Assembly (NCBI GenBank): GCA_964016885.1
Contig: OZ024743.1
Coordinates: forward strand, 299,956,001-300,020,000
Source: Eledone cirrhosa
Lineage: Eukaryota
Length of the DNA: 64,000 nucleotides
Direction of reading: 5' to 3'
Under the pieces are notes generated by a model that ran no database searches, was not told where the DNA came from, and worked only from the letters and a program-made list of their open reading frames with translations. Made by a program: the position numbers and the translations under genes. Below are positions 4,990 through 63,607 of this stretch, piece after piece (position 1 is the first letter of the stretch; each line of letters starts with the position of its first letter).

Positions 4990-6180
4990 TCGCAAAAAGT
5001 GTTTAGAGAGTAATGGGCATCATTTTTGATCCTTTTCACCTCTTCGAGATCGACGGTAAGGTGTCTTAAAAACGGAACCCATCCAAAATATGTATGTATG
5101 TATGTATGGTCTTCCATTTCTGTTATTTTATGAAGTTTTTCAAATAGAGAGATAATCAGCTTCTCGGGATTTGTACTGAGGCAGTAGTAACATACCTCAG
5201 AAGAGTGTGAGATCAACACCGAATCTATTACAACGCTGCCTGCAATGACAATTAAATCTAATATAAATCTACCCTCCCCAACAGTTCCAAAGAAGGGCAC
5301 ATCGAAAACGAAGTCACGCCCATAAGAAAATAAAAGCAGATGTATTGATGCCATGAGTAAAGTCACTCACACAATGCAGTTCTGCAAGGTATTGGAAACC
5401 AATGGTTATCTAACATCCTCCACAAATAGAATACTGAACACCAGGCGCGGAAACCGGAGCAGATTAAGCTTAAGATCCTACACCTCGGCAAAACAGTAAG
5501 CAGTATTATCTCCAGAGCCACCAAAGAGATGCTTATCCAGGAAACAACTCCAAAACGAAAAGAACACGTGCTCTCTTAGGAACTGTCCAATGCACATCAC
5601 ATGCCATTGCTTGCATGCTTATGTTGTATATAGTCTAGAATGTGACAAATTTAACAGTTATTACATCGGCAGAATATTTCGGTCACTGCGCATTAGAATT
5701 AAAGAACACGTCACCCCCATCTTCTCATCATTTCAGAAGCTCGTCTTTAAACGCGGAAACAAAGACAAGAGACTCACAGTTACGGCACAAGCCATAGAAC
5801 ACAACTTAGGCCCTCTGCGCTTCAACGAAGCCTTCTTTATAAAACAAATCGAAAACTCTATCAACCACATACTGGAAAGGAATGAGACTCAATACCTAAT
5901 TTGACACGGTTACCAAACTATTTAAGCAAACGAGAGAAAACCTAAATTAACGAACAATGACAAGAAACAAACTACAGAGCAGTGAAAGCATCGAACTCTC
6001 AATCGAAATACAGGTTGATCTTTACCGGAATGTGACATGTCACATTAACACAATTACATCTATTTTCCTGTTGGTCAGCAGGCCACACAGAGGTTTTTTA
6101 TATGCCTCGGTTGCGACATCCGAAATGTAAAGACGAATAAATACTTCCACGGTAAAATTATTTCCAGTTAATTTCCTTTT
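4990..6180 (+). mobile_element. Decayed Penelope-like element: RT C-terminus, GIY-YIG endonuclease, 3' UTR; possible inverted RT piece at the 5' end
   Basis: ORF 5590-5904 has VVYSLEC..YYIGR..RSLRIRIKEH..EAFFIK (GIY-YIG of PLEs). An upstream NGY motif lies near 5400. The minus strand at 4990-5170 reads ..ITEMED..GWVPFL, resembling the RT FT.E.E..LPFLD motif. Confidence 0.75.
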
Positions 6181-11185: not shown

Positions 11186-11374
11186 TATATATATAGTGTA
11201 TGTGTGTATATAAGTTGCCTATAACAACATAAACAAGTGGAATAATAGATTTGAATACGTGAAAATAATCATTAGGTTTTACCTTGCCCATTTCCTATCA
11301 CTACTTATTTGACTGTGTAAAATGTCTACCATACTAAAATATGGAATGATACGCGGCGATGCCCCCCCCCCCCC

Positions 11375-11885
11375 CCCAGCCCCGGTGGACAGAATGGAGA
11401 AGGCGTTTCCCCGGAGGACGGCAAGGGAGACGCGCTGAAAAAGCCACTCCAACTCGCGGGGACCACACCTGCGTCTGGCCAGCTCAGTGCCTATGGTAGT
11501 TAGTAGGGAGATAGCCCTAGGACCGAGGGCACCAGAAGTCTCCATTGCCAAGGGCAGGACAACGAAGCTGTCGGAAAGCGACCGGTATTTAAGGAGTTTG
11601 ACCTCCTCAGCCCGACGTGCAGCAGAACCTAGGTTAGTCGCAGACTGCAACAGGTTGCGGCTGGAGAAAGTGTCAGTGTAAGTGGCATCCCAGACGAGAG
11701 GATTGCCACCGCGGAAAGGGAAGATGGTTATACCGCCTGGCCTTTTGCCATCCCATCGGTCCAGCCCCACCGGCTCGAGCTGAGAAGGGAAGCCTGCAGC
11801 GTCCAAGCCATGCTTTATGACCTCGTTGAGTGCAGCATGGCGTGGAAGGCGACCGACACAGTGGCGACAGGAAAGCGGGTGGAGG
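11375..11885 (-). mobile_element. CRE-clade non-LTR retrotransposon 3' fragment (restriction-like endonuclease domain)
   Basis: HPLSC..RHAALNEVI..LEPVGL.R.DGKRPGG.T..PF..G..LVWDAT..E..K..KY..P.AMETSGA.G..FQRVSLAVLRGNA, the typical CRE RLE C-terminus. Confidence 0.88.
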
Positions 11886-11998
11886 TTAAACATAAATATT
11901 TGATTATTGTAGTTATCGTAATTTATTATTCCTTTATTAAGATTTTGTAATTGCATCCTAGGAATAAATTAGTAGTCTATATCTTTGACTGCAATTAT

Positions 11999-20486: not shown

Positions 20487-21176
20487 AAAAGAATGAAACG
20501 AAATTTCATTTCTCACTCTTAGTACGGCTGATACCTAAATATAAGTATGTATACGTACATACATATATGTGTACAGACGCGCAGTAGTGTGTATATATAT
20601 ACATACATGCACACATATATATGTGTACTTATGGGTTTAGCGAACATTCATTATAACGTTTGGTTTGTTTGTAAACAAACAGCCAGAATTACGCCGTACA
20701 GTGCTCGGCAACCATCGTCGCCCTTTTGTTCAACACTGACACAGGAACGATGTACTAGTTTCAAGCTTATTAGCTTTCGTCAGCATCGTATACCTTTCTG
20801 TCAGATGATTGAACGTCTGAAAGTATATACTTTCCTTATGCATATTAACGGCTGAGCAGCCAAATTTGGATATCGAGTGAGTTAGTCGGCCGGGCGTACC
20901 GAAAACTATAAATGGAAAATAATGAAACGAAATTACATTTTCACTCTTAGTACGGGCGATACCTAAATATAAGTGTGTATACGTACATACATATATGTGT
21001 ACAGACGCACAGTAGTATGTATATATATACATACATGCACATATATATATATATATGTACGTATGTGTTTCCCGAACATTTATTATAATGTTTGGTTTGT
21101 TTGTATGCACATATACATACTTATATTTAGGTATCAGCAGTATGTGACATGTGATATGTGTTTCGGTTTCATCTTT
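20483..21176 (-). mobile_element. Retrozyme-like repeat, 429-bp unit: about 1.45 tandem units plus short inverted end (21101-21176)
   Basis: ATGGAAAA.AATGAAACGAAA at 20483 and 20912. Family members at 29055-29510, 32590-32940 and 45423-45783. Confidence 0.85.
20747..20789 (-). ncRNA. Intact minimal type I hammerhead ribozyme
   Basis: ACGATG-CTGACGA-AAGCT AATA AGCTT-GAAA-CTAG-TA-CATCGT. All three stems and the core are intact; GUA cleavage predicted between 20753 and 20752. Confidence 0.92.
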
Positions 21177-22174: not shown

Positions 22175-23350
22175 TTGAGAAAGTGTCGCAGCAAGTGGCA
22201 TCACAGACGAGTGGTTTGCCACCGCGGAACGGGAGAAGGTCATACCGCCTGGCCTATTGTCATCCATTCGGTCGAGCCCCACCATCTCGAGCTGTGAAGG
22301 GAAGCCTGCAGTGTCCAAGCCATGCTTAACGACCTCGTTGAGGGCAGCATCGCGTGGAAGGCGGCCGGCACTGTGGCGACAGGAAAGCGGGTGGAGTCCG
22401 AAAGAATCCACGGTGGATCCACAGCGACATTTATGTGGCTCGCAGATCCGGAGTCGAAGCCTCATGGAAACGCCGATGCGCAGGCTATCGTTATCCAGCC
22501 CCATGCCAGTGGAGAAGAAGGACAAGGCGTGGAGCCAGACACCACTGTGGGGTTTGCAGGCCGCGCGAAAACAGGCAAGGCGGTGCTGGTCGACCTGGCG
22601 CGTGAGCCTGTCTGAGGGCAGGCTGCACTGGTTGGCATCCCATACGCTTTGGGGGGACTTGACGTCAGCAGGGGGAGAAGGAGGAGGAACATTCTACTGG
22701 GCTAAGCCCCATCCTGTCCCACGTCTCACAGGCGATCTCACCTTACTTGAACTCAGAGGGTTCTATTGTGTTTTGTAGAAACCTGCTGACGAGGACGCGA
22801 CATGAGGTTACCGATGAAGGAACCGCCGGGAAAGCGATGTAGATCGGGGACCGTAGGCCAAGGCCGCCAAATCTGACAGGTAAAGTGGCCTGTTGCCATC
22901 CAATGTCGTCAAACTTGACGTTGCATATCTCCTCAGCTGCCGCTCGGATACAAGTATCGAGGTCCCCGAGGAGAGATACGTGGCTGTAGCACGGAGCGCG
23001 GCGAAGGGTGTAGAGGAGCTTCGGCATGGCAAAGCAGTTCCTCAACAGGAAGAGAGCTGGGTGGTCGTCGATCAAGCCCAGTCGGCTTGTGAGGGTCTAG
23101 AGTTTTTGGAGCCTAGACCTGATGGTGGAGCGGATGGCCGGCGAGTAGATCGGTGACACGAGGATGAGGACATCCTTTTTCGGGGTCACCTGTACCTGGT
23201 GGAGAATGGACCACACGTCCAAGACGGAGGTTGCAAAGCTCTCAGCATCATAACTGACATTCACCACCTCTGACTTCGACGAGTTGACCTGGAAGCCGAT
23301 TCCCGCCAGGGAAGGAACCACCGATTGAAGGTCATTGCAGACAGTCTCAA
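22175..23350 (-). mobile_element. CRE-clade non-LTR fragment: RT C-terminus, thumb, CCHC knuckle, start of RLE
   Basis: GFQVNSSKSEV; HPALFLLRNCFAMPKLLYTLR..WQQATLPVRFGGLGLR; CRCGSTVDSFGLHPLSC; RPGG. Confidence 0.92.
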
Positions 23351-26504: not shown

Positions 26505-27365
26505 AGAAGTGGTTACACAACAGTTAGTTCACCATACCGAGAACAATTGTTTTACCTTAGCGGATCCTCAGCTCGTAATGGACATGGTTATTCGGAACAG
26601 GAAGGACAACCCTACGGACGCGCATGCGCAGAAACCGTCACTTCACACAGGCAATACTAAAAATCGTGTGAGAGGTGTAAGGGAGATAACTGCGAAAGTC
26701 CGAACAGTTTCTAGTTGATAAGAAAATTAGGATGTTGTGATTCAATCCAGAGCCTTGCAGTTATGTAAAAGGTGTTCCGAGACGTGCGGACGACGTGTGA
26801 AGAATTCATTTCTCGCGTTCAGGCAATCACTATTGCATACTTTCTTTAGAATATTTATTCGTTCATCAATACATAGTTCACACGACAGATTTCCCCTTGC
26901 CTATGGCTTGGACTTAGTGAAGGCTTTCCATTTAATATAGTAGTCTATACTTGAGTCCTTGAGGGACCATACGTGGCTCGCGAGTTTTGTGGATGAACGT
27001 CTGTCCGGGTACCAACAGGTTGACTGGTGGTTCAGGAAGCGTTCCTTAAATCGGCCCTCCGCCATACCCACAGAGGATTTGACCTTCTGTGGTAGGTTTG
27101 GTCGGCTGGAAGTGACCACAGCTTCAGAAATTACAGCGGGTGTGTAGCATTGCTGTTGAAGGGGACAAGCTTCGGCAAGCGCAACCTGTTGGGGTGTTGC
27201 TCTTAGGTCTGTTGGTGATGTGGGCCCTCATGTTCTTAGCGCAGGAGTATCCTAGTTTTACTTAGTGTCGGTGAAAGATGGAGCGGTATTTATGATAGAC
27301 ACTTTCCCATAGGTCATAAATGCCCCTCCGTCTTTAACCGACACAAAATAAAACTAGGATACTCC

Positions 27366-42074: not shown

Positions 42075-42960
42075 CGAGGTGTGTCAGAAAAGTTCCAGGA
42101 CTGATGTCACAAAAGATTTATTTCAAACCCAAACTTCACACTAAGAGGTTTCTCCTTCAAAGTAATTCCCCTGGAGTATGTAACTGTAATCTTAGCTCTC
42201 TGCATCGATCAAACTTTTTTCTTCATAATTTTATATACATGTCCTCTGTTTCAGGTCGTCAAGCAATGAGCACAGAGCAACGAACAAACTTGAAGTTTCT
42301 GGTACGGTTGGGGAAAACTCCGACAGAAGCGCTGGGATTGTTGCAGCAAGTGTATGGAGATGAGACGATGCCACGCTCGCGTGTGTTTGAGTGGTGCAAG
42401 ATGACCCCAGGAGCGAAGGGCCCTCAACAACCCGGACTGAGGTCAACGTTGAGCGCGTCAGGCAGATAGTGCGTAGCGATCGGCGGCCGACTGTTCAACT
42501 GATGGTAAATGAGCTGGGCATGAGTCAAGAGAGCGTCTGGAAGATTCTCAATGAAGATTTGGACATGCGGAAAGCCTGCGCGAAGATGGTGCCAAAACTG
42601 CTGAACGATGACCAGAAGGGTCGATGCATGCAAGTGTGCCAGGACAGCCTCGAGCGTCTTGAAACCGAACCAGACTTGCTAGGGACAGTCATCACCGGTG
42701 ATGAGTAATGGATCTTCGAGTACGACCAGGAGGGGACCCATTTTGAAGACGTGGACGACATCAAAAAGGCCGTGACGACGGACTTGCAGAGGATTCCGGA
42801 AGAATCCTTCCAGAAGTGCATGCAAGCGTGGCAGGAAAGGATGGAAAAGTGCATTAGACTCTAGTGGGATTACTTTGAAGGAGAAACCTCTTAGTGTGAA
42901 GTTTGGTTTTGAAATAAATCTTATGTGACATCAGTCCTGGAACTTTTCTGACACACCTCG
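42075..42960 (+). mobile_element. Mariner transposon, internally deleted, ~96 bp inverted termini, TA target duplication
   Basis: TA|CGAGGTGTGTCAGAAAAGTTCCAGGACT ... AGTCCTGGAACTTTTCTGACACACCTCG|TA. EQRTNLKF.VRLGK, MVPKLL, VITGDE*WIFEYD joined directly to the C-terminal F.DV..IK..YFEG. Confidence 0.95.
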
Positions 42961-49991: not shown

Positions 49992-50999
49992 TGTGTGTGT
50001 GGGAAAGTAGAGAAGTGACACTCGAGTTGATATGTATACAAGAAATAGTGAAAAAGACAAAAAACACAGTAGAAAATTCTAAAGGGGTTTTCTCTCACAA
50101 TAACATTAAAACATTTACTTACAAAATAGGGATTTCCGCATTTATTTGTACCGGTTTCAGCTTATATGCTTTTTCACCGACGGAAGTGTATAATGCAATT
50201 AAATTGCATATTAATAAGAATAATAAGTATATGGAAAAAAATGTGTTTTTACATACATATTTAGGAAGAAAAGTTCTATATTATCGTACATAATACCTCT
50301 TCTAACACCTGCTTCATGAAATTACCACATTTCAGGGAAAGCAAACCCAGATCTATGCGCAGAGCTATCCACAAAGAAGGATTGGAAGTACAAGTAGCAC
50401 ACTCCAGCCCTTCACTGCTTGGATACCTGTCTACAAAGCAATCAAGAGACAACAATAATCATATATATATAAACATTTCAGGTTATCAATAATGTATTGA
50501 TAATATATCATCACGTTAGAGTTGAACAGCGTACGTGTAGGTTTGCTCAACGAGTATAAATTATATTCCGGAGAAAATGTAGAAAAGATGAATATAAAAT
50601 GAAAGTGCTTTTATAAAGGAATTTATTAGGTATTAACACATGTTTCTGTAACAGATGGAATACCTATGTATCGCTGCTTGCGTAATCATATAATGTTAGC
50701 AAGTATTCAATAGCAAATGTATAATCAGTTGTCACTTCTTCAGAGATAATGGTTACATTTGAAAAAATCAGAAACATTGAAGTATTTATATTAGTTGTAA
50801 GAAAGGAAGAGGTGAGGGGGTAGTATATGACGGATGGCAATTCAATTTACAGGTAAACAAGTATCTAAAAGGTTTCTAATGAGAATACAATGAGTATATG
50901 GTTTATTTTATCTAAATAAGAATTTTTGGTTAAACCGTTCCCTAAACTATTAAATCAATCCCTAGAAATATTTCCCTTAGGATCTCCCGCCTGTCGTCC

Positions 51000-51975
51000 A
51001 ACCAGAAAAGCTTCAAAGAACATGCTGAATATTATGATGATGCACTTAGGAAGGCTGGACACCTAGATAATATATAGTATATAGTCGACGATCACCAAAA
51101 CACACAAAATAAATCTCATAGTGGTAGAAATAGCATAGAATCACCACCATACATACAGTACCGCACTAGACACACTAATAGTCGCACACCACCAAACAGA
51201 AGGCGATGTAAAGAGTATACATGGTACAACCCGGTCTATAACAAATCTATTAAAACCAATCTACCCTCACAATTCTTTCGATTAGTTAAAAAACACTTTC
51301 CAACATCACATAAATATAATAAAATCTTAAACCCTAACAATATTCGACTTTCATATTCAACCGCCCCTAATATTGAACAATATATAAAAAAGATTAATGC
51401 AAAACGGTTGTATAAACGCCTTCCAACACATAACAATACACGTAAAACATCGGCTATAACATTACAAAACAACAAACAAGATCTCGTCCTACCTAAGCAA
51501 CCTCATCAACCCTTCCATGCCAATACAACAACGCAAAATTATAACTGTAACTGTGTCCAACCAGGAATGTGTCCGTTGAACAATCAGTGTCTTGAACGCA
51601 ACATCATATACAAATGTACTATCGTATCGGATAGCCAGAAGTGGTACTATGTGGGGTCTACAGCAACCTCCTTCAAATATCACCTTTATAGACATCGTTA
51701 CTCAATAAAACATGAAAACCAGCGTTATGTAATAACACTCGCAGACAAGGCTTGGCAGGTGCGCGAAAATAACCAACAATTTAACCTAAGATGTGATATA
51801 ATAGTGTATGCCCCTGCATTCCCACGGACAGGAATTTTGTAAATTGTGTAATATGGAATTATTTTGTATTATGGAATCCAAAAATATTTTATTAAATAAC
51901 AGAATAGAGCGATCGTTATACTGTAAGCATCGCTTGAAATCTACATTTTCATATTACAAACACTACCAGGATTGA
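51000..51975 (+). pseudogene. PLE RT thumb/linker plus GIY-YIG endonuclease, frameshifted
   Basis: YDDALRKAG; WYNPVYNKSIKTNL..F.RLVKKHF; RLSYSTAPN; CNC..CPLNNQCL..IIYKC..YYVGSTATSFK; CKLC..E; LNNR.E..CKH. Confidence 0.9.
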
Positions 51976-52449
51976 ACGCGTGTCTCCATCTCCGTTTGAT
52001 TGTCAAAATACATATTAACCTTCTCTATTAGTCTTAATTCTATCAACTCTTCTATTCTTTACCATTTAATATAAAGTGCTATAGATAAAATGAGATTTCT
52101 TAATTCAATTCCCTAATGCATATACCAACAGGCTACCAGCATTGTTGTTATTCAGTAGCAGTGAAAATCTCCCTCTTCCTTAATTGACACTTTATATCTA
52201 TTAATACTACTAAACCAAACGACCAGCCCTGTCCATTGTTCAATTGGCCAAGTATAGATTAAAATAGGCACTCCAAAAAATTATTATTTTGATAAAACCA
52301 TATACTCATTGTATTCTCATTAGAAACCTTTTAGATACTTGTTTACCAGTAAATTGAATTGCCATCTGTCATTACTATCCCCTCTCCTCTTCCTTTCTTA
52401 CAACTACTATAAATACTTCAACTTTTCAGATTTTTTCCTATGTATCCAA

Positions 52450-52568
52450 TATCTCTGAAGAAGTGACAACTGATTACACATTTGCTATCGAATACTTGCT
52501 AATATTATATGATTATGCAAGCAGCGATACATAGATATTCCGTCTGTTACAGAAACATATGTCAATAC
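52450..52568 (+). ncRNA. Hammerhead motif in the pseudo-LTR with ~90 nt stem II
   Basis: CTGAAGA (52455)-A GTGACA..TGTTAC A-GAAA (52552)-CATATG-TC. Stem I is weak. Confidence 0.6.
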
Positions 52569-52616
52569 CTAATAAATTCCTTTATAAAAGCACTTTCATT
52601 TTATATTCATCTTTTC

Positions 52617-52668
<52 letters not shown>

Positions 52669-53365: not shown

Positions 53366-53420
53366 TATATATATATATACACATATACATACACACATAC
53401 ACATATACATATATATATAT

Positions 53421-55256
<1,836 letters not shown>

Positions 55257-55657: not shown

Positions 55658-56522
55658 TAAGACAGGGGGGAAGAAAAACTGGCTTCACTTGTGCTTTCAA
55701 CAAATTTATTTTCTTCACAAAATCCAAAAAGAATTTTTTTCCGGATTAGAAACATTTTTGTTTTTTTTCTTAAAAAAATTATTTTATAAATTAAGTTGTT
55801 GGTTGTTGGTTAGGTCTTAGGAGTTCTTGGTTAACGTAGGAGGTATTGTTTCGTTTTTAGAACGACCTTTCACGCTGAGGTGCGCTTGTCAATCTGATGT
55901 GTATGTGGTGTGTTGTTCTATATATAGGGATTTAACATGTACGTGGTGTGGTGGGGGTTTCTTTTCTCCCCTTTAATAAGTGTATGTGTGTAGGTGTGTT
56001 GAAAAAGTGTTAATAGCAGTAATGAGTTTAGACGGTGAGTAGGGTTGGGTGGGGAGAAATGTAGCAAGTGCGGCATGCCCCAGTCATTCTCGAAACATTC
56101 CTTTATTCAGGGGAAAAAAGCTTTTAGTATTCCTTTTGTGTTGAGAATGGTCACAGTCAAATCGCACCTGCCAAGTTTGTAAATAATTATTTTTTTCATA
56201 TTTTCTGAAGAATTTTTCTACGTCAATCCCAAAATTAGTCCTTTGTTCAACACACACATATTTGCGTATATACGTACATACACACACGGGCATATGTAGG
56301 AATATATAGGCACACACCATCAATCACACACCCATGTACAAATACATCCACATACATACACAAGAACATATAGAGACACATATAAAAACAGATATACACA
56401 TACGTACACACACGAATATGTACTCATACCTCTACAAGGGTATATATATATATATAACGGCATTCCTGTCTTAACGACATCACAACTTTCTCCGCTTGGC
56501 CTGTTCCCCCCCTTTTGGAACT

Positions 56523-56560
56523 ATCCCCCGTTGATGGGCGTGAGCCCGAAATATTGGGAT
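56523..56560 (+). ncRNA. Minimal HHR scaffold with mutated core, inside a ~250 bp insert unique to the left palindrome arm
   Basis: ATCCC-CCGTTGA-T GGGC GTGA GCCC-GAAA-TA-TT-GGGAT. Confidence 0.6.
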
Positions 56561-56705
56561 TAAATCTCCACTACGGTAACCCTTCTGCCTTTGTTTTGTT
56601 TTCATCCTTGTCTCTCTCAATTTTCACTTTCACCTGTTTTTCCTATCTATCTTTCACTTCCTACCTCGAGATTTCCCTCTGCATTGTTGTGGCTTTCTTA
56701 ACTAC

Positions 56706-56772
<67 letters not shown>

Positions 56773-57051
56773 CATACATATACATATACACACATATACA
56801 CACATATATATATATATATACACATATATATATATATATACATACATACACATACATACATACACATACATACATATACACACATAAAGATACATAACTA
56901 AATTTACATATATACACATACACGCACACATACACACACACTCACACACACATACACACGTGTATACACACACACACACACACATATACATATGTCCGTA
57001 TATATACCACCGTTCACACATACATGCATACACACACACACATACACACAT

Positions 57052-57081
<30 letters not shown>

Positions 57082-57082
<1 letters not shown>

Positions 57083-58471
57083 AAGAATTCATATCTAGTA
57101 ACATATATATACATACAGATGCATATCAATGCTAGCAAATATATACGTTTTGTCTTAATAACAGTGTGGTTCAATGCATGGGGTTGCAGAACAATAATAT
57201 AAGAGACGTAAAATAAGAAAATTATAAAATTAACTTACTTACTAAAATATCACTTCCAACTAATTAGTTTCTGGAATGGAGTAAATATATTTTCCGAAGA
57301 ATAATATAGAGAAGCATTCCGTCGTCAGAAAAGTCTATTCTCATGTAGGTTTCCAGGCAAAGCGAGGACACTGGAAACTTATTAAAAAATAATTCAGGGG
57401 ATAGGAAATAGCGAAGCGTGGACTGAATTCCAAGCCATTGAGAAAATCACTGCCTCTACGTCTGTGGCAAATTTAAAAAGAATCGAACACGTGACTTCGA
57501 GGTCAATCAGTGGAAAGTGGTTTGCTAATAAGACAGCGGCCTGCCTACAACCGTAGCAGCAGTCATGGCCAATATTGCTCGACAAATAATTTGGAGATAA
57601 TAATAAAGAATTCCTATCTAGTAACACATATATACATACAGATGCATATCAATGCTAGCAAATATATAGGTTTTGTCTTAATAACAGTGTGGTTCAATGC
57701 ATGGGGTTGCAGAACAATAATATAAGAGACGTAAAATAAGAAAATTATAAAATTAACTTACTCACTAAAATATCACTTCCAACTAATTAGTTTCTGGAAT
57801 GGAGTAAATATATTTTTCGAAGAATAATATGGAGAAGCATTCCGTCTTCAGGAAAGTCTATTCTCATGTATTTACTCCATTCCAGAAACTAATTAGTTGG
57901 AAGTGATATTTTAGTGAGTAAGTTAATTTTATAATTTTCTTATTTTACGTCTCTTATATTATTGTTCTGCAACCCCATGCATTGAACCACACTGTTATTA
58001 AGACAAAACCTATATATTTGCTAGCATTGATATGCATCTGTATGTATATATGTGTTACTAGATAGGAATTCTTTATTATTATCTCCAAATTATTTGTCGA
58101 GCAATATTGGCCATGACTGCTGCTACGGTTGTAGGCAGGCCGCTGTCTTATTAGCAAACCACTTTCCACTGATTGACCTCGATGTCACGTGTTCGATTCT
58201 TTTTAGATTTGCCACAGACGTAGAGGCAGTGATTTTCTCAATGGCTTGGAATTCAGTCCACGCTTCGCTATTTCCTATCCACTGAATTATTTTTTAATAA
58301 GTTTCCAGTGTCCTCGCTTTGCCTGGAAACTTACATGAGAATAGACTTTTCTGACGACGGAATGCTTCTCTATATTATTCTTCGGAAAATATATTTACTC
58401 CATTCCAGAAACTAATTAGTTGGAAGTGATATTTTAGTAAGTTAATCTTATAATTTTCTTATTTTACGTCT

Positions 58472-58476
<5 letters not shown>
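57082..58476 (-). mobile_element. Retrozyme-like array, 523-bp unit (1.5 copies), plus inverted copy 57870-58476
   Basis: HHRs at 57252-57334 and 57775-57857 (minus) are exactly 523 bp apart. Confidence 0.9.
58345..58427 (+). ncRNA. Type I hammerhead with long stem II (copies 57252-57334 and 57775-57857 on minus)
   Basis: ACTTTT-CTGACGA-C GGAATG..CATTCC A-GAAA-CTAATTAG-TT-GGAAGT. Confidence 0.82.
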
Positions 58477-58543
<67 letters not shown>

Positions 58544-58637
58544 GAAGTGGATGGATACAGCATCTGAACAGGTGATTATTTAATCATTTTTAAATTTATT
58601 TAGAAAATTGTTTAATAACCGTTTGTTTCGCTACTTT

Positions 58638-58712
<75 letters not shown>

Positions 58713-58909
58713 GTATGTATGTATATATGTGTCTTTATGTGCTCGTGTGTACACATATATATATATGTATATATACATATATGTATGTATGTACTTGTAT
58801 GTGTATGTGTGTGTGTATGTATATATATATATATAGATATATATGTATGTATATGTGTGTATGTGCCTGTATGTATTTATGTGTACATATATGTATATAT
58901 ATATGTATG

Positions 58910-58974
<65 letters not shown>

Positions 58975-59211
58975 GTGTGTATGCCTCTCTCTATGTATGT
59001 ATATATATATATATGTGTATGTGTGTATGTTGATGTGTGTATGCATGTATGTGTGAACGGAGGTATATATACGGTCATATGTATATGTGTGTGTGTGTGT
59101 ATACACGTATGTGTGTGTGTGTGTATGTGTGCGTGTATGTGTATATATGTATAATTAGTTATGTATCTTTATGTGTGTATATGTATGTATGTGTATGTAT
59201 GTATGTGTATG

Positions 59212-59252
<41 letters not shown>

Positions 59253-59297
59253 ATATATATATATATATATGTATATGCGGGTATATGTATATGTATG

Positions 59298-59379
<82 letters not shown>

Positions 59380-60454
59380 CATGTGGAGAGATGAGTACAT
59401 ATTCGTGTGTGTACGTATGTGTATATGTGTTTTTATATGTGTCTCTATATGTTTCTGTGTATGTATGTGGATGTATTTGTATATGGGTGTGTGATTGATG
59501 GTGTGTGCCTATATATTCCTACATATGCCCGTGTGTGTATGTACGTATATATGCACATATATGTGTGTTGAACAAAGGACTAATTTGGGGATGGACGTAG
59601 AAAAATTCTTCAGAAAAAAAGAAAAAAGTAATAATTTACAAACTTGGCAGGTGCGATTTGCCTGTGACCACTCTCAACACAAAAGGAACACTAAAAGCTT
59701 TTTACCCTGAATAAAGGAATTTTTCGAGAATGACCGGGCAGGCCGCACTTGCTACATTTCTCCCCACCCAACCCTACTCACCGTCTCAACTCATTACTGC
59801 TATTAACACTTTTTCAACACACCTACACCCATACACTTATTAAAGGGGGAGAAAAGAAACCCCCACCACACCACATACATGTTAAATCCCTATATATAGA
59901 ACAAAACACCACATACACATCAGTTTGACAAGCGCACCTCAGCGTGAAATGTCGTTCTAAAAACGAAACAATACCTCCTACGTTAACCAAGAACTCCTAA
60001 GACCTAACAAACAACCAACAACTTAATTTATAAAATAATTTTTTTAAGAAAAAAAAAAAAAAATATTTTTTCTAATCCGGAAAAAAATTATTTTTGGATT
60101 CTGTGAAGAAAATAATTTTGTTGAAAGCACAAGTGAAGCCACTTTTTCTTCCCCCCTGTCTTAATATACCTATCTGTACCAAGGATTACACACATTTTCC
60201 AATATATATTTATATATATATATATATATAGATACATATATATATATACATACACACACACACATATATATATATACACACAAATATACACACGCATACG
60301 TACACATACACACATACACGTATACATAAATAAATAAATATATATAAATATATATATATACACACACACACATACACACACCTACATATACACATATACA
60401 CACATATATATATATACATATATACATATATAAACATATATATATATATATCTA

Positions 60455-60485
<31 letters not shown>

Positions 60486-61401
60486 CATAAAACATGTCTA
60501 TAGAATCAATCAGATATTAAGATATATACTATTTCTTCCTCTAATCAGCATAATTAACCATATACAAAATCAAATCTAGCAAGCTTTATGAATACATTTT
60601 CTTACGGAGAAATCCCTGACAAACAATTGATCGTAGCCTCTTCGCAGCAGCTCCGTTCCACTATTTATCAAACATTTCGGCAGCATGCGGAATCTGATCA
60701 AATATACCATCAACCGCACTTAATTAGTAGTAAAATTAAACCTAGAAGAAATGCGCATATACCGTAATTATATCCCTACCTTGGTTTCTTCCTTATTTAG
60801 GAAATCCAAATAATATGGAAATATCCTGAGTTAGGTTTCATCAGGGGATAAACTCAGAATCAGACATTTATTTTCTCAAACCGACCGCGCCAAATTTAGA
60901 TTCAAAAATGGCTAAGATCGCTATGTTGCTGTGTACCAGCCAGAGAGAAAGCGTGTGATCGGTTGCTTACGGCCGGTAGGCTTGCTGCTAGAAAGCGCAG
61001 CCATATATCGCCAAATTTAATCTCAACCAATTGGAAGATTATTAAATATAAAGGTTATCACATACATACAATTAAATCAAAGATATATATATATAATGCT
61101 CTGATTTTTTATTTTAATTTATTAATTCTTCATTGAGCTTAAAAGTGAACAGTTGCAACATATATATATCTTTGATTTAATTTTATGTATGTGATATCCT
61201 TTATATTTAATAATCTCCCAATTGGTTGTGATTAAATTTAGCGATATATGGCTGCGCTTTCTAGCAGCAAGCCTACCCGCCTTAAGCAAACAATCACACG
61301 CTTTCTCTCTGGCTGGTAAACAGCTACATAGCGATCTTAGCCATTTTTGAATCTAAATTTGGCGCGGTCGGTTTGAGAAAATAAATGTCTGATTCTGAGT
61401 T

Positions 61402-61480
61402 TATCCCCTGATGAAACCTAACTCAGGATATTTCCATATTATTTGATGTCCTAAATAAGGAAGAAACCATGGTAGGGATA
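61402..61480 (+). ncRNA. Type I hammerhead ribozyme, intact core
   Basis: TATCCC-CTGATGA-AACCTA..TAAGGAA-GAAA-CCATGG-TA-GGGATA. Cleavage predicted after 61474. Confidence 0.88.
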
Positions 61481-62076
61481 TAATTACGGTATGTGCGCAA
61501 TTCTTCTAGGTTTAATTTTACTACTAATTAAGTGCGGTTGATGGTATATTTGATCGGATTCCGCATGCTGCCGAAACATTTGATAAATAGTGGAACGGAG
61601 CTGCTGCGAAGAGACAACGATCAATTGTTTGTCAGTGATTTCCCCGTAAGAAAATTTATTCTTAAAGCTTGCTAGATTTGATTTTGTATATGGTTAATTA
61701 TGCTGATTAGAGGAAGAAATAGTATATATCTTAATATCTGATTGATTCTATAGACATGTTTTATGCTATAATGCTCTGATTTTTTAATTTTAATTTATTA
61801 ATTCTTCATTGAGCTTAAAAGTGAACAGTTGCAACATATATATATCTTTGATTTAATTTTATGTAAGTGATAACCTTTATATTTAATAATCTCCCAATTG
61901 GTTGAGATTAAATTTGGCGATATATGGCTGCGCTTTCTAGCAGCAAGCCTACCCGCCGTAAGCAACCATCATACCCTTTCTCTCTGGCTGGTACATAGCT
62001 ACATAGCGATCTTAGCCATTTTTGAATCTAAATTCGGCGCGGTCGGTTTGAGAAAATAAATGTCTGATTCTGAGTT

Positions 62077-62156
62077 TATCCCCTGATGAATCCTAACTCA
62101 GGATATTTCCATATTATTTGGATGTCCTAAATAAGGAAGAAACCATGGTAGGGATA
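62077..62156 (+). ncRNA. Type I hammerhead ribozyme, intact core (third copy 60771-60850 on minus)
   Basis: TATCCC-CTGATGA-ATCCTA..TAAGGAA-GAAA-CCATGG-TA-GGGATA. Cleavage predicted after 62150. Confidence 0.9.
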
Positions 62157-62549
62157 TAATTACGGTATGTGCGCATTTCTTCTAGGTTTAATTTTACTAC
62201 TAATTAAGTGCGGTTGATGGTATATTTGATCGGATTCCGCATGCTGCCGAAATGTTTGATAAATAGTGGAACGGAGCTGCTGCGAAGAGGCTACGATCAA
62301 TTGTTTGTCAGGGATTTCCCCGTAAGAAAATTTATTCTTAAAGCTTGCTAGATTTGATTTTGTATATGGTTAATTATGCTGATTGGAGGAAGAAATAGTA
62401 TATATCTTAATATCTGATTGATTCTATAGACATGTTTTATGATATAATGCTCTGATTTTTTATTTTAATTTATTAATTCTTCATTGAGCTTAAAAGTGAA
62501 CAGTTGCAACATATATATATCTTTGATTTAATTTTATGTATGTGATAAC

Positions 62550-62618
<69 letters not shown>

Positions 62619-62638
62619 TATATACATATAACATACAC

Positions 62639-62685
<47 letters not shown>

Positions 62686-62697
62686 TACAAATACACG

Positions 62698-62759
<62 letters not shown>

Positions 62760-62798
62760 TTCACATACATACACACACACATATATACACATACATAC

Positions 62799-62829
<31 letters not shown>

Positions 62830-63119
62830 CACATATATATACACATATACACATATACATATACACATTTACATATATATATATACACACACACACACAC
62901 ACTCATATATACACATATATACACACACATATATAAATAATAAATAAATACATAAATACACACACAGAGAGAGAACCACACAAACACATACACACAAATA
63001 CCCACACACACACACGCATATATATATATATATATATACACGCATACCCACACACACACATACACACGAATATATACACATACAAATAAATAAGTACTCA
63101 ATAAATATACGCATATACA

Positions 63120-63560
63120 CAGGCACATAAAAACAGCTCTACAGGCAGAAAATGCAGATAGGTAAGAGGTACTCACATAACCATAGTGGCCGTATTTCAG
63201 GTTGAGGAGGGGTGAGGTTGGGTGGGAAGGAGGTATAGGAGCCAATAGGACGAGGTCGGTTTTAGCCATCGGGCTTTAACACTGGCTTAAAGTTTTTGAA
63301 AGTTGCAAAGTTCTTCTGCATGCAGTTCGGGCAGTGTTCAGAGAGTTTGTTCAGTAGCAGGCCCTTGGCGAATAAAATTTCGTAGCTCTCTGAGATACAA
63401 AGGTCGCAGCCCTTGTGTCCTCCTTTGTAAGAGCGCGCTGGTTGGAGTATTTTCCATTTAAGCGTGAAGAGGGTGGAGTTCCTTTTAATAAGGTCCCAAA
63501 CATAGGAGGCGAGTGTTGTCTGGTTTGATTTGTTCAGTCTTCTGAAGGAGTGGGTATGGG
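63120..63560 (-). mobile_element. PLE GIY-YIG C-terminal remnant and 3' UTR
   Basis: HTHSFR..NQTTLASYVWDL..KWKILQPARSYKGG..CDLCISESYEIL..LLNKLSEHCPNC. Confidence 0.8.

Positions 63561-63607
<47 letters not shown>

Follow-up and report, generated by a model that had tools for sequence, protein, structure and literature searches.

The array of hammerhead motifs at 60484-62560 of the window (the whole 64,000-nt stretch of Eledone cirrhosa DNA analysed here, contig OZ024743.1, positions 299,956,001 to 300,020,000) is one member of a dispersed superfamily of non-coding units of about 650-690 nt. It is best explained as a non-autonomous Penelope-like element (PLE), or retrozyme, which would be moved in trans by the protein of a Hydra-clade PLE and would be able to form a circular RNA (probability about 0.55). 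The unit very probably depends on a PLE for its mobilization. Judged by sequence features, the mobilizing partner probably belongs to the Hydra clade.

The insertion consists of two arms placed head-to-head. A TA/CA microsatellite (60202-60483), the target, adjoins an inverted, 5'-truncated arm on the minus strand (60484-61092; unit positions 68-675), the 3' end of which lies at a site termed END1. The plus-strand arm comprises two units and a 117-nt tail: unit 1 (61093-61768), which terminates at END1, unit 2 (61769-62444), which serves as the reference unit (q1-676), and the terminal tail (62445-62560; q1-117), which forms the 3' end of this arm. Both outer ends (60484 and 62560) adjoin (TA)n. 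The 117-nt tail segment also occurs within the array (61769-61885), and its end marks the second fixed 3' end (TAIL); just 3' of it lies a CTCC-N7-GTTGAG motif (61891-61906) that is common to ORF-bearing Hydra-like PLEs and carries mutations in both unit 1 and the inverted arm. The TA/CA-rich right flank (62561-63139) is probably the microsatellite-rich 3' UTR of a neighbouring truncated PLE, judging from other copies of that family. This ORF-bearing, 5'-truncated element (63140-63561, minus strand) retains the GIY-YIG C-terminal part and is either an independent neighbour or the host of the insertion.

An earlier inspection of the same DNA, the sequence-only reading, had placed its candidate at 60483-62555; it recognized the tandem plus-strand array but missed the inverted arm, the 117-nt tail and the targeting of (TA)n. 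Its view of the monomer as non-coding agrees with the longest stop-free frame of the window unit, 69 codons (GC content 34%). It had also called the array young, a description that holds in a relative sense. In full-unit comparisons the four segments now differ pairwise by 2.9-3.8%, and at each of the 33 variable positions a single segment deviates (33/33), which indicates that the segments were near-identical at insertion and have since decayed by about 1.5% each.

Hammerhead 1 (type I; 61402-61480, plus strand) has helix I at 61402-61407/61475-61480, its core at 61408-61414 and an extended helix II at 61415-61462, followed by GAAA and CCATGG, with a predicted cut after 61474. Hammerhead 2 (62077-62156, plus strand) has its core at 62083-62089, an A·A mismatch followed by a 4-bp TCCT/AGGA helix, and a predicted cut after 62150. 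A third hammerhead lies on the minus strand in the inverted arm (60771-60850; core from 60844, site 17 at 60777), where the helix III palindrome is mutated to CCAAGG. Helix I of both plus-strand hammerheads is 6 bp long (TATCCC/GGGATA), and the core (CUGANGA/GAAA/UH) and helix I are those of a type I hammerhead. Helix III is the 6-nt palindrome CCATGG, of the dimer type; a short palindromic helix III is described as needing a dimer (PMC4209133). The strict motif (GAAA-CCATGG-TA after the core) appeared in 0 of 2,000 base shuffles of the unit. The two cuts proposed earlier, 676 nt apart, are borne out by the motif scan and delimit a predicted monomer (61475-62150) that runs from a rod hairpin through END1 (nt 294), the tail end (nt 411) and the shared motif (nt 417) to the next hammerhead.

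The description of both hammerheads as intact stands for the CTGATGA cores (61408 and 62083), GAAA, CCATGG and the 6-bp helix I, but not for positions 10.1/11.1, which are A·A rather than G-C in both plus-strand ribozymes, and helix II departs from the canonical paired, short form; an Rfam scan of the window returned no family at gathering thresholds. In the window ribozymes, helix II contains a stem of 3-4 bp, which an internal loop separates from a distal hairpin; in hammerhead 1, the 3-bp CCT/AGG helix is preceded by a pair of A·A mismatches. Because the segments appear to have been near-identical at insertion, both plus-strand ribozymes would then have opened helix II with AACCT/AGGAA. Perreault et al. 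(PMC3088659) rejected hits mispaired at 10.1/11.1 and ranked this pair as the second most conserved, yet reported one active case with U·U. Simple decay as the source of the A·A mismatch was considered and is weakened by the variation of 10.1/11.1 among subfamilies (G-C, A·C, A-U, U-A or A·A) and by mismatches at the same positions in the ORF-bearing families B and P51. In ten copies the 5' strand of helix II is largely lost (AACTA). As regards the loop I-loop II tertiary contact of canonical type I hammerheads, helix I of the window hammerheads is without a defined loop in the cut-to-cut context, and an unconstrained fold of the downstream hammerhead region was no more stable than shuffles (z 0.06). 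The activity of the window's own hammerhead copies is uncertain.

The genome searched comprises 3.0 Gb. With the window unit as query, 2,603 first-look candidates were obtained, 40 of which were scored, and a 25-mer from the 3' end of the unit matched 3,410 times genome-wide (control 0), a count that takes in related subfamilies and several matches per insertion. The genomic count proposed as a check by the sequence-only reading thus describes a dispersed family. Full units fell into nine clusters at 90%, with seven clean subfamily representatives of 647-676 nt that are 69-82% identical to the window unit and all non-coding (longest stop-free frame 72 codons).

The ends of the copies were examined in two sets. 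Set 1 comprises 46 loci near the window unit and is biased to long or cut-spanning copies; of its 68 arms, 40 end at END1, 20 at q108-120 (TAIL), five at q77-92 and three elsewhere, and none (0/68) has its 3' end near the cut (q382). Instead of the circularly permuted ends that the sequence-only reading had proposed to look for, the copies have 3' ends fixed at two sites, which lie 117 nt apart in the window unit. Set 2 comprises 63 loci in genome order, picked by the end motif alone; after 57 of 159 hits (short and microsatellite-driven) had been discarded, 102 arms remained, with 55 at END1, 33 at TAIL, 14 elsewhere, and scattered 5' ends. Set 2 includes 24 head-to-head pairs: 17 join END1 to TAIL, one joins END1 to END1 and six have an unclassifiable end, so that END1+TAIL accounts for 17 of the 18 classifiable pairs (P 2.6e-5). 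The arms within each pair are 91-100% identical in 24/24 pairs, showing at the sequence level that both come from the same subfamily. Judged by inspection, the flanks of L001-L060 were mostly TA tracts.

At L026 (1383-2951), two head-to-head arms that are 18-23% divergent both end at TAIL, and the divergent arm carries a canonical G10.1-C11.1 hammerhead; this locus represents either a single event that involved two RNAs or two separate insertions. A three-part chimera at L081 (G000:C3:102192500-102202300) joins the unit, the end of a family A ORF with its 3' UTR, and a short hammerhead element, without TA tracts at the joins.

Fixed 3' ends, 5' truncation, head-to-head arms and (TA)n targets are the signature of PLE insertion, which has been described as 5' truncation, partial tandems, an inverted copy and a tail at one end (PMC8557442, PMC3846280). 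Hydra-clade PLEs are reported to target (TA)n and to carry hammerheads (PMC8557442), and two internal starts of reverse transcription, with a requirement for RNA 3' of them, have been given as the source of the PLE tail (PMC11167929). Target-primed insertion of the PLE type is identified by three features, namely an inverted arm, a tail and targeting of (TA)n. These same observations bear on a different origin, in which the tandem and inverted copies would be products of satellite-like local duplication of DNA or artefacts of assembly. The region is rich in microsatellites, and a 2026 preprint proposes that PLE termini are amplified locally into tandem repeats (bioRxiv 10.64898/2026.07.22.740005), but dozens of unlinked loci, spread over many contigs, follow the same end rules, each window copy has its own mutations, unlike an assembly duplication, and the END1+TAIL asymmetry is also present in an ORF-bearing element of the window (L061). 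We regard such an origin as highly improbable.

It is also improbable, if slightly less so, that the units are no more than the truncated ends (pLTR plus tail) of an undetected autonomous PLE and not a self-spreading family. All of the end features match those of truncated PLE copies, and the search for a partner took in four ORF-bearing families only. Against this, units run on seamlessly without an ORF between them, 32 of the 102 set 2 arms exceed one unit, and at least seven subfamily representatives exist, all of them non-coding. Only two of the 46 loci close to the window unit (L037 and L044) have a direct join to pieces of a PLE ORF, and the families involved have ends unrelated to those of the unit. 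The copies are not routinely tied to a PLE ORF; constant attachment to one would, by the sequence-only reading, have refuted its proposal. The joins at L037 and L044 could reflect template switching or nested insertion accompanied by deletion.

PLE ORFs are abundant in the genome (54,653 first-look candidates). One copy of family P51 (L235) has an uninterrupted frame of 783 aa with RWK, DKT, CxCX5C and CxxC/CxH, which are features given for the Hydra clade (PMC8557442). The assignment of PLE ORFs rests on such motifs because Pfam and PDB sequence searches with them gave weak unrelated matches only. Copies of P51 and of family A each have two end sites, 107-110 nt and 89 nt apart, respectively, and a P51 element in the window (50577-52621; Hydra-like, ORF-bearing, 5'-truncated, with an inverted arm) ends at the tail in one arm and at END1 in the other, so that it obeys the same two-end rule as the non-coding unit. 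A CTCC-N3-10-GTYGAG motif lies about 4-6 nt 3' of the tail end in the unit, P51, family A and the 57-kb family described below; a P51 relative also carries it, as do all seven representatives in their alignment. The whole window contains four occurrences of the shared motif, three of them inside these non-coding elements. This common geometry and motif make ORF-bearing Hydra-like PLEs the likely mobilizers.

Homology between the pLTRs was not detected by blastn of the unit against P51 (20 + 4 loci), family A (30) and family B (1), nor, among the matches listed, against the 63-kb family (12 loci). A weak alignment links the window unit to the P51 5' region (z 4.0-5.8; 0/200 shuffles); for other subfamilies z was 0.4-3.6, and a profile search with nhmmer was non-significant (E 0.22-2.3). 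Family A, suspected as partner from the L044 chimera, was rejected as it has its own, different ends; the L044 junction, which shows 5 nt of microhomology, could have arisen by nested insertion and deletion. The P51 pLTR of L235 (6480-7300, minus strand) contains CTGAAGA-A ... A-GAAA-CATATG-TC with a helix II insert of about 90 nt and a weak helix I, and the shared motif of L235, whose end is 27 nt ahead of the ATG, looks like a 3' splice site (CAG/TTGAG).

Several neighbouring elements in the window are of related kinds. A second non-coding family with the same layout occupies 57080-58478 (the 57-kb element), with 523-nt units, an inverted arm, a 117-nt tail and the shared motif at 58083; its hammerhead has C·A at 10.1/11.1 and the palindrome CTAATTAG, and its relatives (L012, L018, L020, L236 and L237) show compensatory changes in helix II. 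This element is inserted in the middle of a large inverted pair (55658-60168; 94%, about 650 bp plus TG-rich stretches) that probably represents PLE 3' ends. A third TA-flanked, tandem-plus-inverted non-coding element (53418-55105) has a unit of about 630 nt and CTGATGA near its ends. A minimal hammerhead on the minus strand (20753-20783; CTGACGA/GAAA-CTAG-TA) lies in a repeat with further copies near 29.2, 32.6 and 45.5 kb, and similar motifs are found in L072, L111 and L236. By eye, 5500-5904, 26901-27227, 42391-42708, 11279-11968 and 22743-23096 contain what we take to be transposon remnants, namely two GIY-YIG-like PLE fragments, a mariner-like transposase piece and pieces of non-LTR reverse transcriptase/endonuclease; Pfam searches of four of these gave no matches.

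Traces of cleavage were sought at the 5' junctions of genomic copies. Two solo copies start at the predicted cut (L150 and L156), but only two of 66 arms that reach the cut stop there. Junction scans for copies that meet (TA)n no more than about 30 nt from the cut gave, among the matches listed for the window subfamily (100 of 112), 26 loci: at least three exactly at the cut, at least one at +1/+2, at least 14 at an ATATA microhomology (+3), at least five further downstream, at least two in the 17 nt upstream and one ambiguous. Among those listed for related subfamilies (100 of 142) there were 37 loci, with at least nine at 0 to +3 (three exact), at least 25 at +4 to +12 (AT-rich) and at least three in the 18 nt upstream. 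A control stretch yielded 14 loci in 31 nt, which scales to an expectation of 2.3 at 0 to +3. With the discovery locus left out, the excess over this control among the matches listed is significant for 0 to +3 (P 0.002) and not for the exact cut base alone (P 0.11), while the pooled exact-site count, again among the matches listed, exceeds that of the upstream flank (P 9e-4). Because the offsets were read by eye and the interval of 0 to +3 was picked after the data had been seen, this excess offers moderate evidence of cleavage in living cells.

Selection on the RNA structure of the unit is visible in the comparison of subfamilies. Compensatory changes occur in helices I and II, and the long imperfect rod hairpin directly 3' of the cut (62152-62410) is kept across subfamilies (z -3.9), with 95% of cells paired, double changes in 7 of 58 pairs and many G·U-compatible changes; the rod was derived from the same alignment, which makes these controls lenient. 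On the genomic record, hammerhead cleavage in vivo is reasonably likely to take place somewhere in the superfamily, and for the A·A subfamily of the window the balance tips slightly in its favour.

The proposed course of mobilization starts with binding of the unit RNA by the RT/GIY-YIG protein at or near the CTCC/GTYGAG motif and nicking of both strands of a (TA)n tract by that protein. Reverse transcription of the same RNA would then start at END1 and at the tail end, one start per strand, and joining of the two cDNAs at their truncated ends would yield head-to-head arms. With the motif located downstream of both starts, the daughters of a linear template would, if the motif is required as such RNA is in the PLE PAc, be one unit shorter in each round; with arrays of at most 2.3 units, the family would need a step that restores length. 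Loci with two tandem hammerheads (about 7% of arms, the plus arm of the window among them) could release a monomer with both starts and the motif. Ligated to a circle, this monomer would give seamless cDNA of more than one unit; left linear, it would give copies that stop at the cut.

Observations on tandem copies fit rolling-circle copying, which is plausible on sequence grounds. Among the 102 arms of set 2, 64 read through a cut and seven through two, with a longest arm of 1,532 nt. Variants private to a locus are common to its tandem and inverted units at L013, L016, L023, L025, L028 and L040, units of different rank differ by 2.1% and those of the same rank by 1.7% (P 0.09, non-significant), and none of 26 variable sites in three insertions separates upstream from downstream units. 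These results support the view that the units within one insertion derive from one unit sequence. Folding of the 676-nt monomer as a circle, a check suggested earlier, gave a structure slightly better than shuffles (z -2.1, 0/30). Uncleaved RNA with strand transfer, or very young source arrays, would be just as likely to yield seamless arrays and shared variants, and we put a circular template at about even odds.

The same non-autonomous PLE could instead work from a linear template, its transcripts (by read-through or from a pLTR promoter) remaining mostly uncleaved. Length would then be restored when the reverse transcriptase, on reaching the RNA 5' end, jumps to the matching homologous position in the next unit or from one end to the other, and the A·A subfamily would have a weak or dispensable hammerhead. 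Stops do become more frequent once a unit has just been completed: in the second pass, 9 of 20 END1 arms end 30-110 nt in, compared with 11 of 55 in the first (P 0.04). This rise fits a finite linear template, but the stretch is also rich in TA microhomology, and arm ends close to the unit boundary scatter across 70 nt of it instead of falling on one start site. The 10.1/11.1 mismatch, the ten copies without most of the helix II 5' strand, and apparent switches to other RNAs at L044, L042 and L037 are likewise compatible with such a template, and cleavage was reported as dispensable for PAc in vitro, where hammerhead mutants had no effect on insertion (PMC11167929). However, copies that read through the cut have a clean junction there, with one of three canonical hexamers in 102 of 114 contexts; core, palindrome and helix pairing are retained over 30% divergence; and variants specific to upstream units are absent. 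A linear working template is, on this balance, rather unlikely. Of the circle-capable retrozyme, the fullest version has a 676-nt circle as the true transposition intermediate, with the Hydra-clade protein on a conserved hairpin motif and two starts of reverse transcription about 115 nt apart, one per target strand; this version we put forward tentatively, as a possibility somewhat short of even.

Elements of this kind have been described before. Circles of animal non-LTR retrozymes were shown in coral, mussel and axolotl, with PLEs proposed as mobilizers (Cervera and de la Pena 2020, PMC7229834), and Li, Clavereau and Pollet (2026) treat retrozymes as non-autonomous PLE derivatives (bioRxiv 10.64898/2026.07.22.740005). 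The present element resembles them in being non-coding, tandemly repeated and low in GC, with a type I hammerhead and a short palindromic helix III in each repeat. The sequence-only reading thought 676 nt unusually long; the published ranges of '150 to >1000 nt' (PMC7229834) and of 51-972 bp for consensus sequences, with a mean of 650 in ray-finned fishes (bioRxiv 10.64898/2026.07.22.740005), include this length. Unlike those retrozymes, the present family forms short two-armed insertions of at most 2.3 units with fixed 3' ends and not long arrays, and has a long bipartite helix II with variable 10.1/11.1 and a 260-nt rod after the cut. In Xenopus, eight of nine retrozyme dimers were reported without cleavage and one was cleaved (bioRxiv 10.64898/2026.07.22.740005).

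With the Hydra-clade EN+ PLEs of Craig et al. (2021, PMC8557442) the family shares (TA)n targets, hammerhead, 5' truncation, partial tandems, inverted arm and tail; it differs in having no ORF and in a tail of 117 nt (107-110 in P51, about 90 in family A), compared with the 30-40 nt described there. PAc, a Poseidon element of Anolis (Frangieh et al. 2024, PMC11167929), is alike in its two internal starts, AT-rich targets and extension of both strands, but belongs to a different clade. Both strands were described as using the same starts in vitro for PAc, whereas different ends are found here in 17 of 18 pairs, and RNA ends were reported as absent from the PAc cut, whereas genomic 5' junctions are enriched at the cut here. 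Chlamys elements such as MRC1 (PMC8557442) are also non-coding PLE dependents with pLTRs and head-to-tail multimers, but are described from green algae, belong to a clade with an N-terminal EN and mostly lack canonical hammerheads. Plant LTR retrozymes have a type III hammerhead in LTRs, PBS/PPT and a 4-bp TSD; the present element instead has a type I hammerhead and PLE ends. By its sequence, the element would work like a retrozyme and is classed as a non-autonomous PLE. Our literature searches returned no account of this hammerhead superfamily; Repbase and Dfam lay outside their scope, and the supplements of the 2026 preprint could list similar families. Four points are added to the known picture: a connection with Hydra-like PLEs, seen in the geometry and in a cis motif; the length of the tail; a strict rule of two ends; and an apparent cleavage footprint.

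At issue are the reasons why PLEs carry hammerheads and the way in which copies of more than one unit are regenerated, for which a circular PLE intermediate was proposed in 2014 (PMC4209133). The family provides thousands of genomic records of the reaction in the form of end rules, arm pairing and cut junctions; the shared cis motif points to the likely partner clade, and the short, defined RNA suits a test of circle versus linear template. If the circle reading is true, it would join the PLE tail, the inverted arm, pseudo-LTR arrays of more than one unit and the retention of hammerheads in one mechanism, and a hammerhead variant without the 10.1-11.1 pair would work in vivo.
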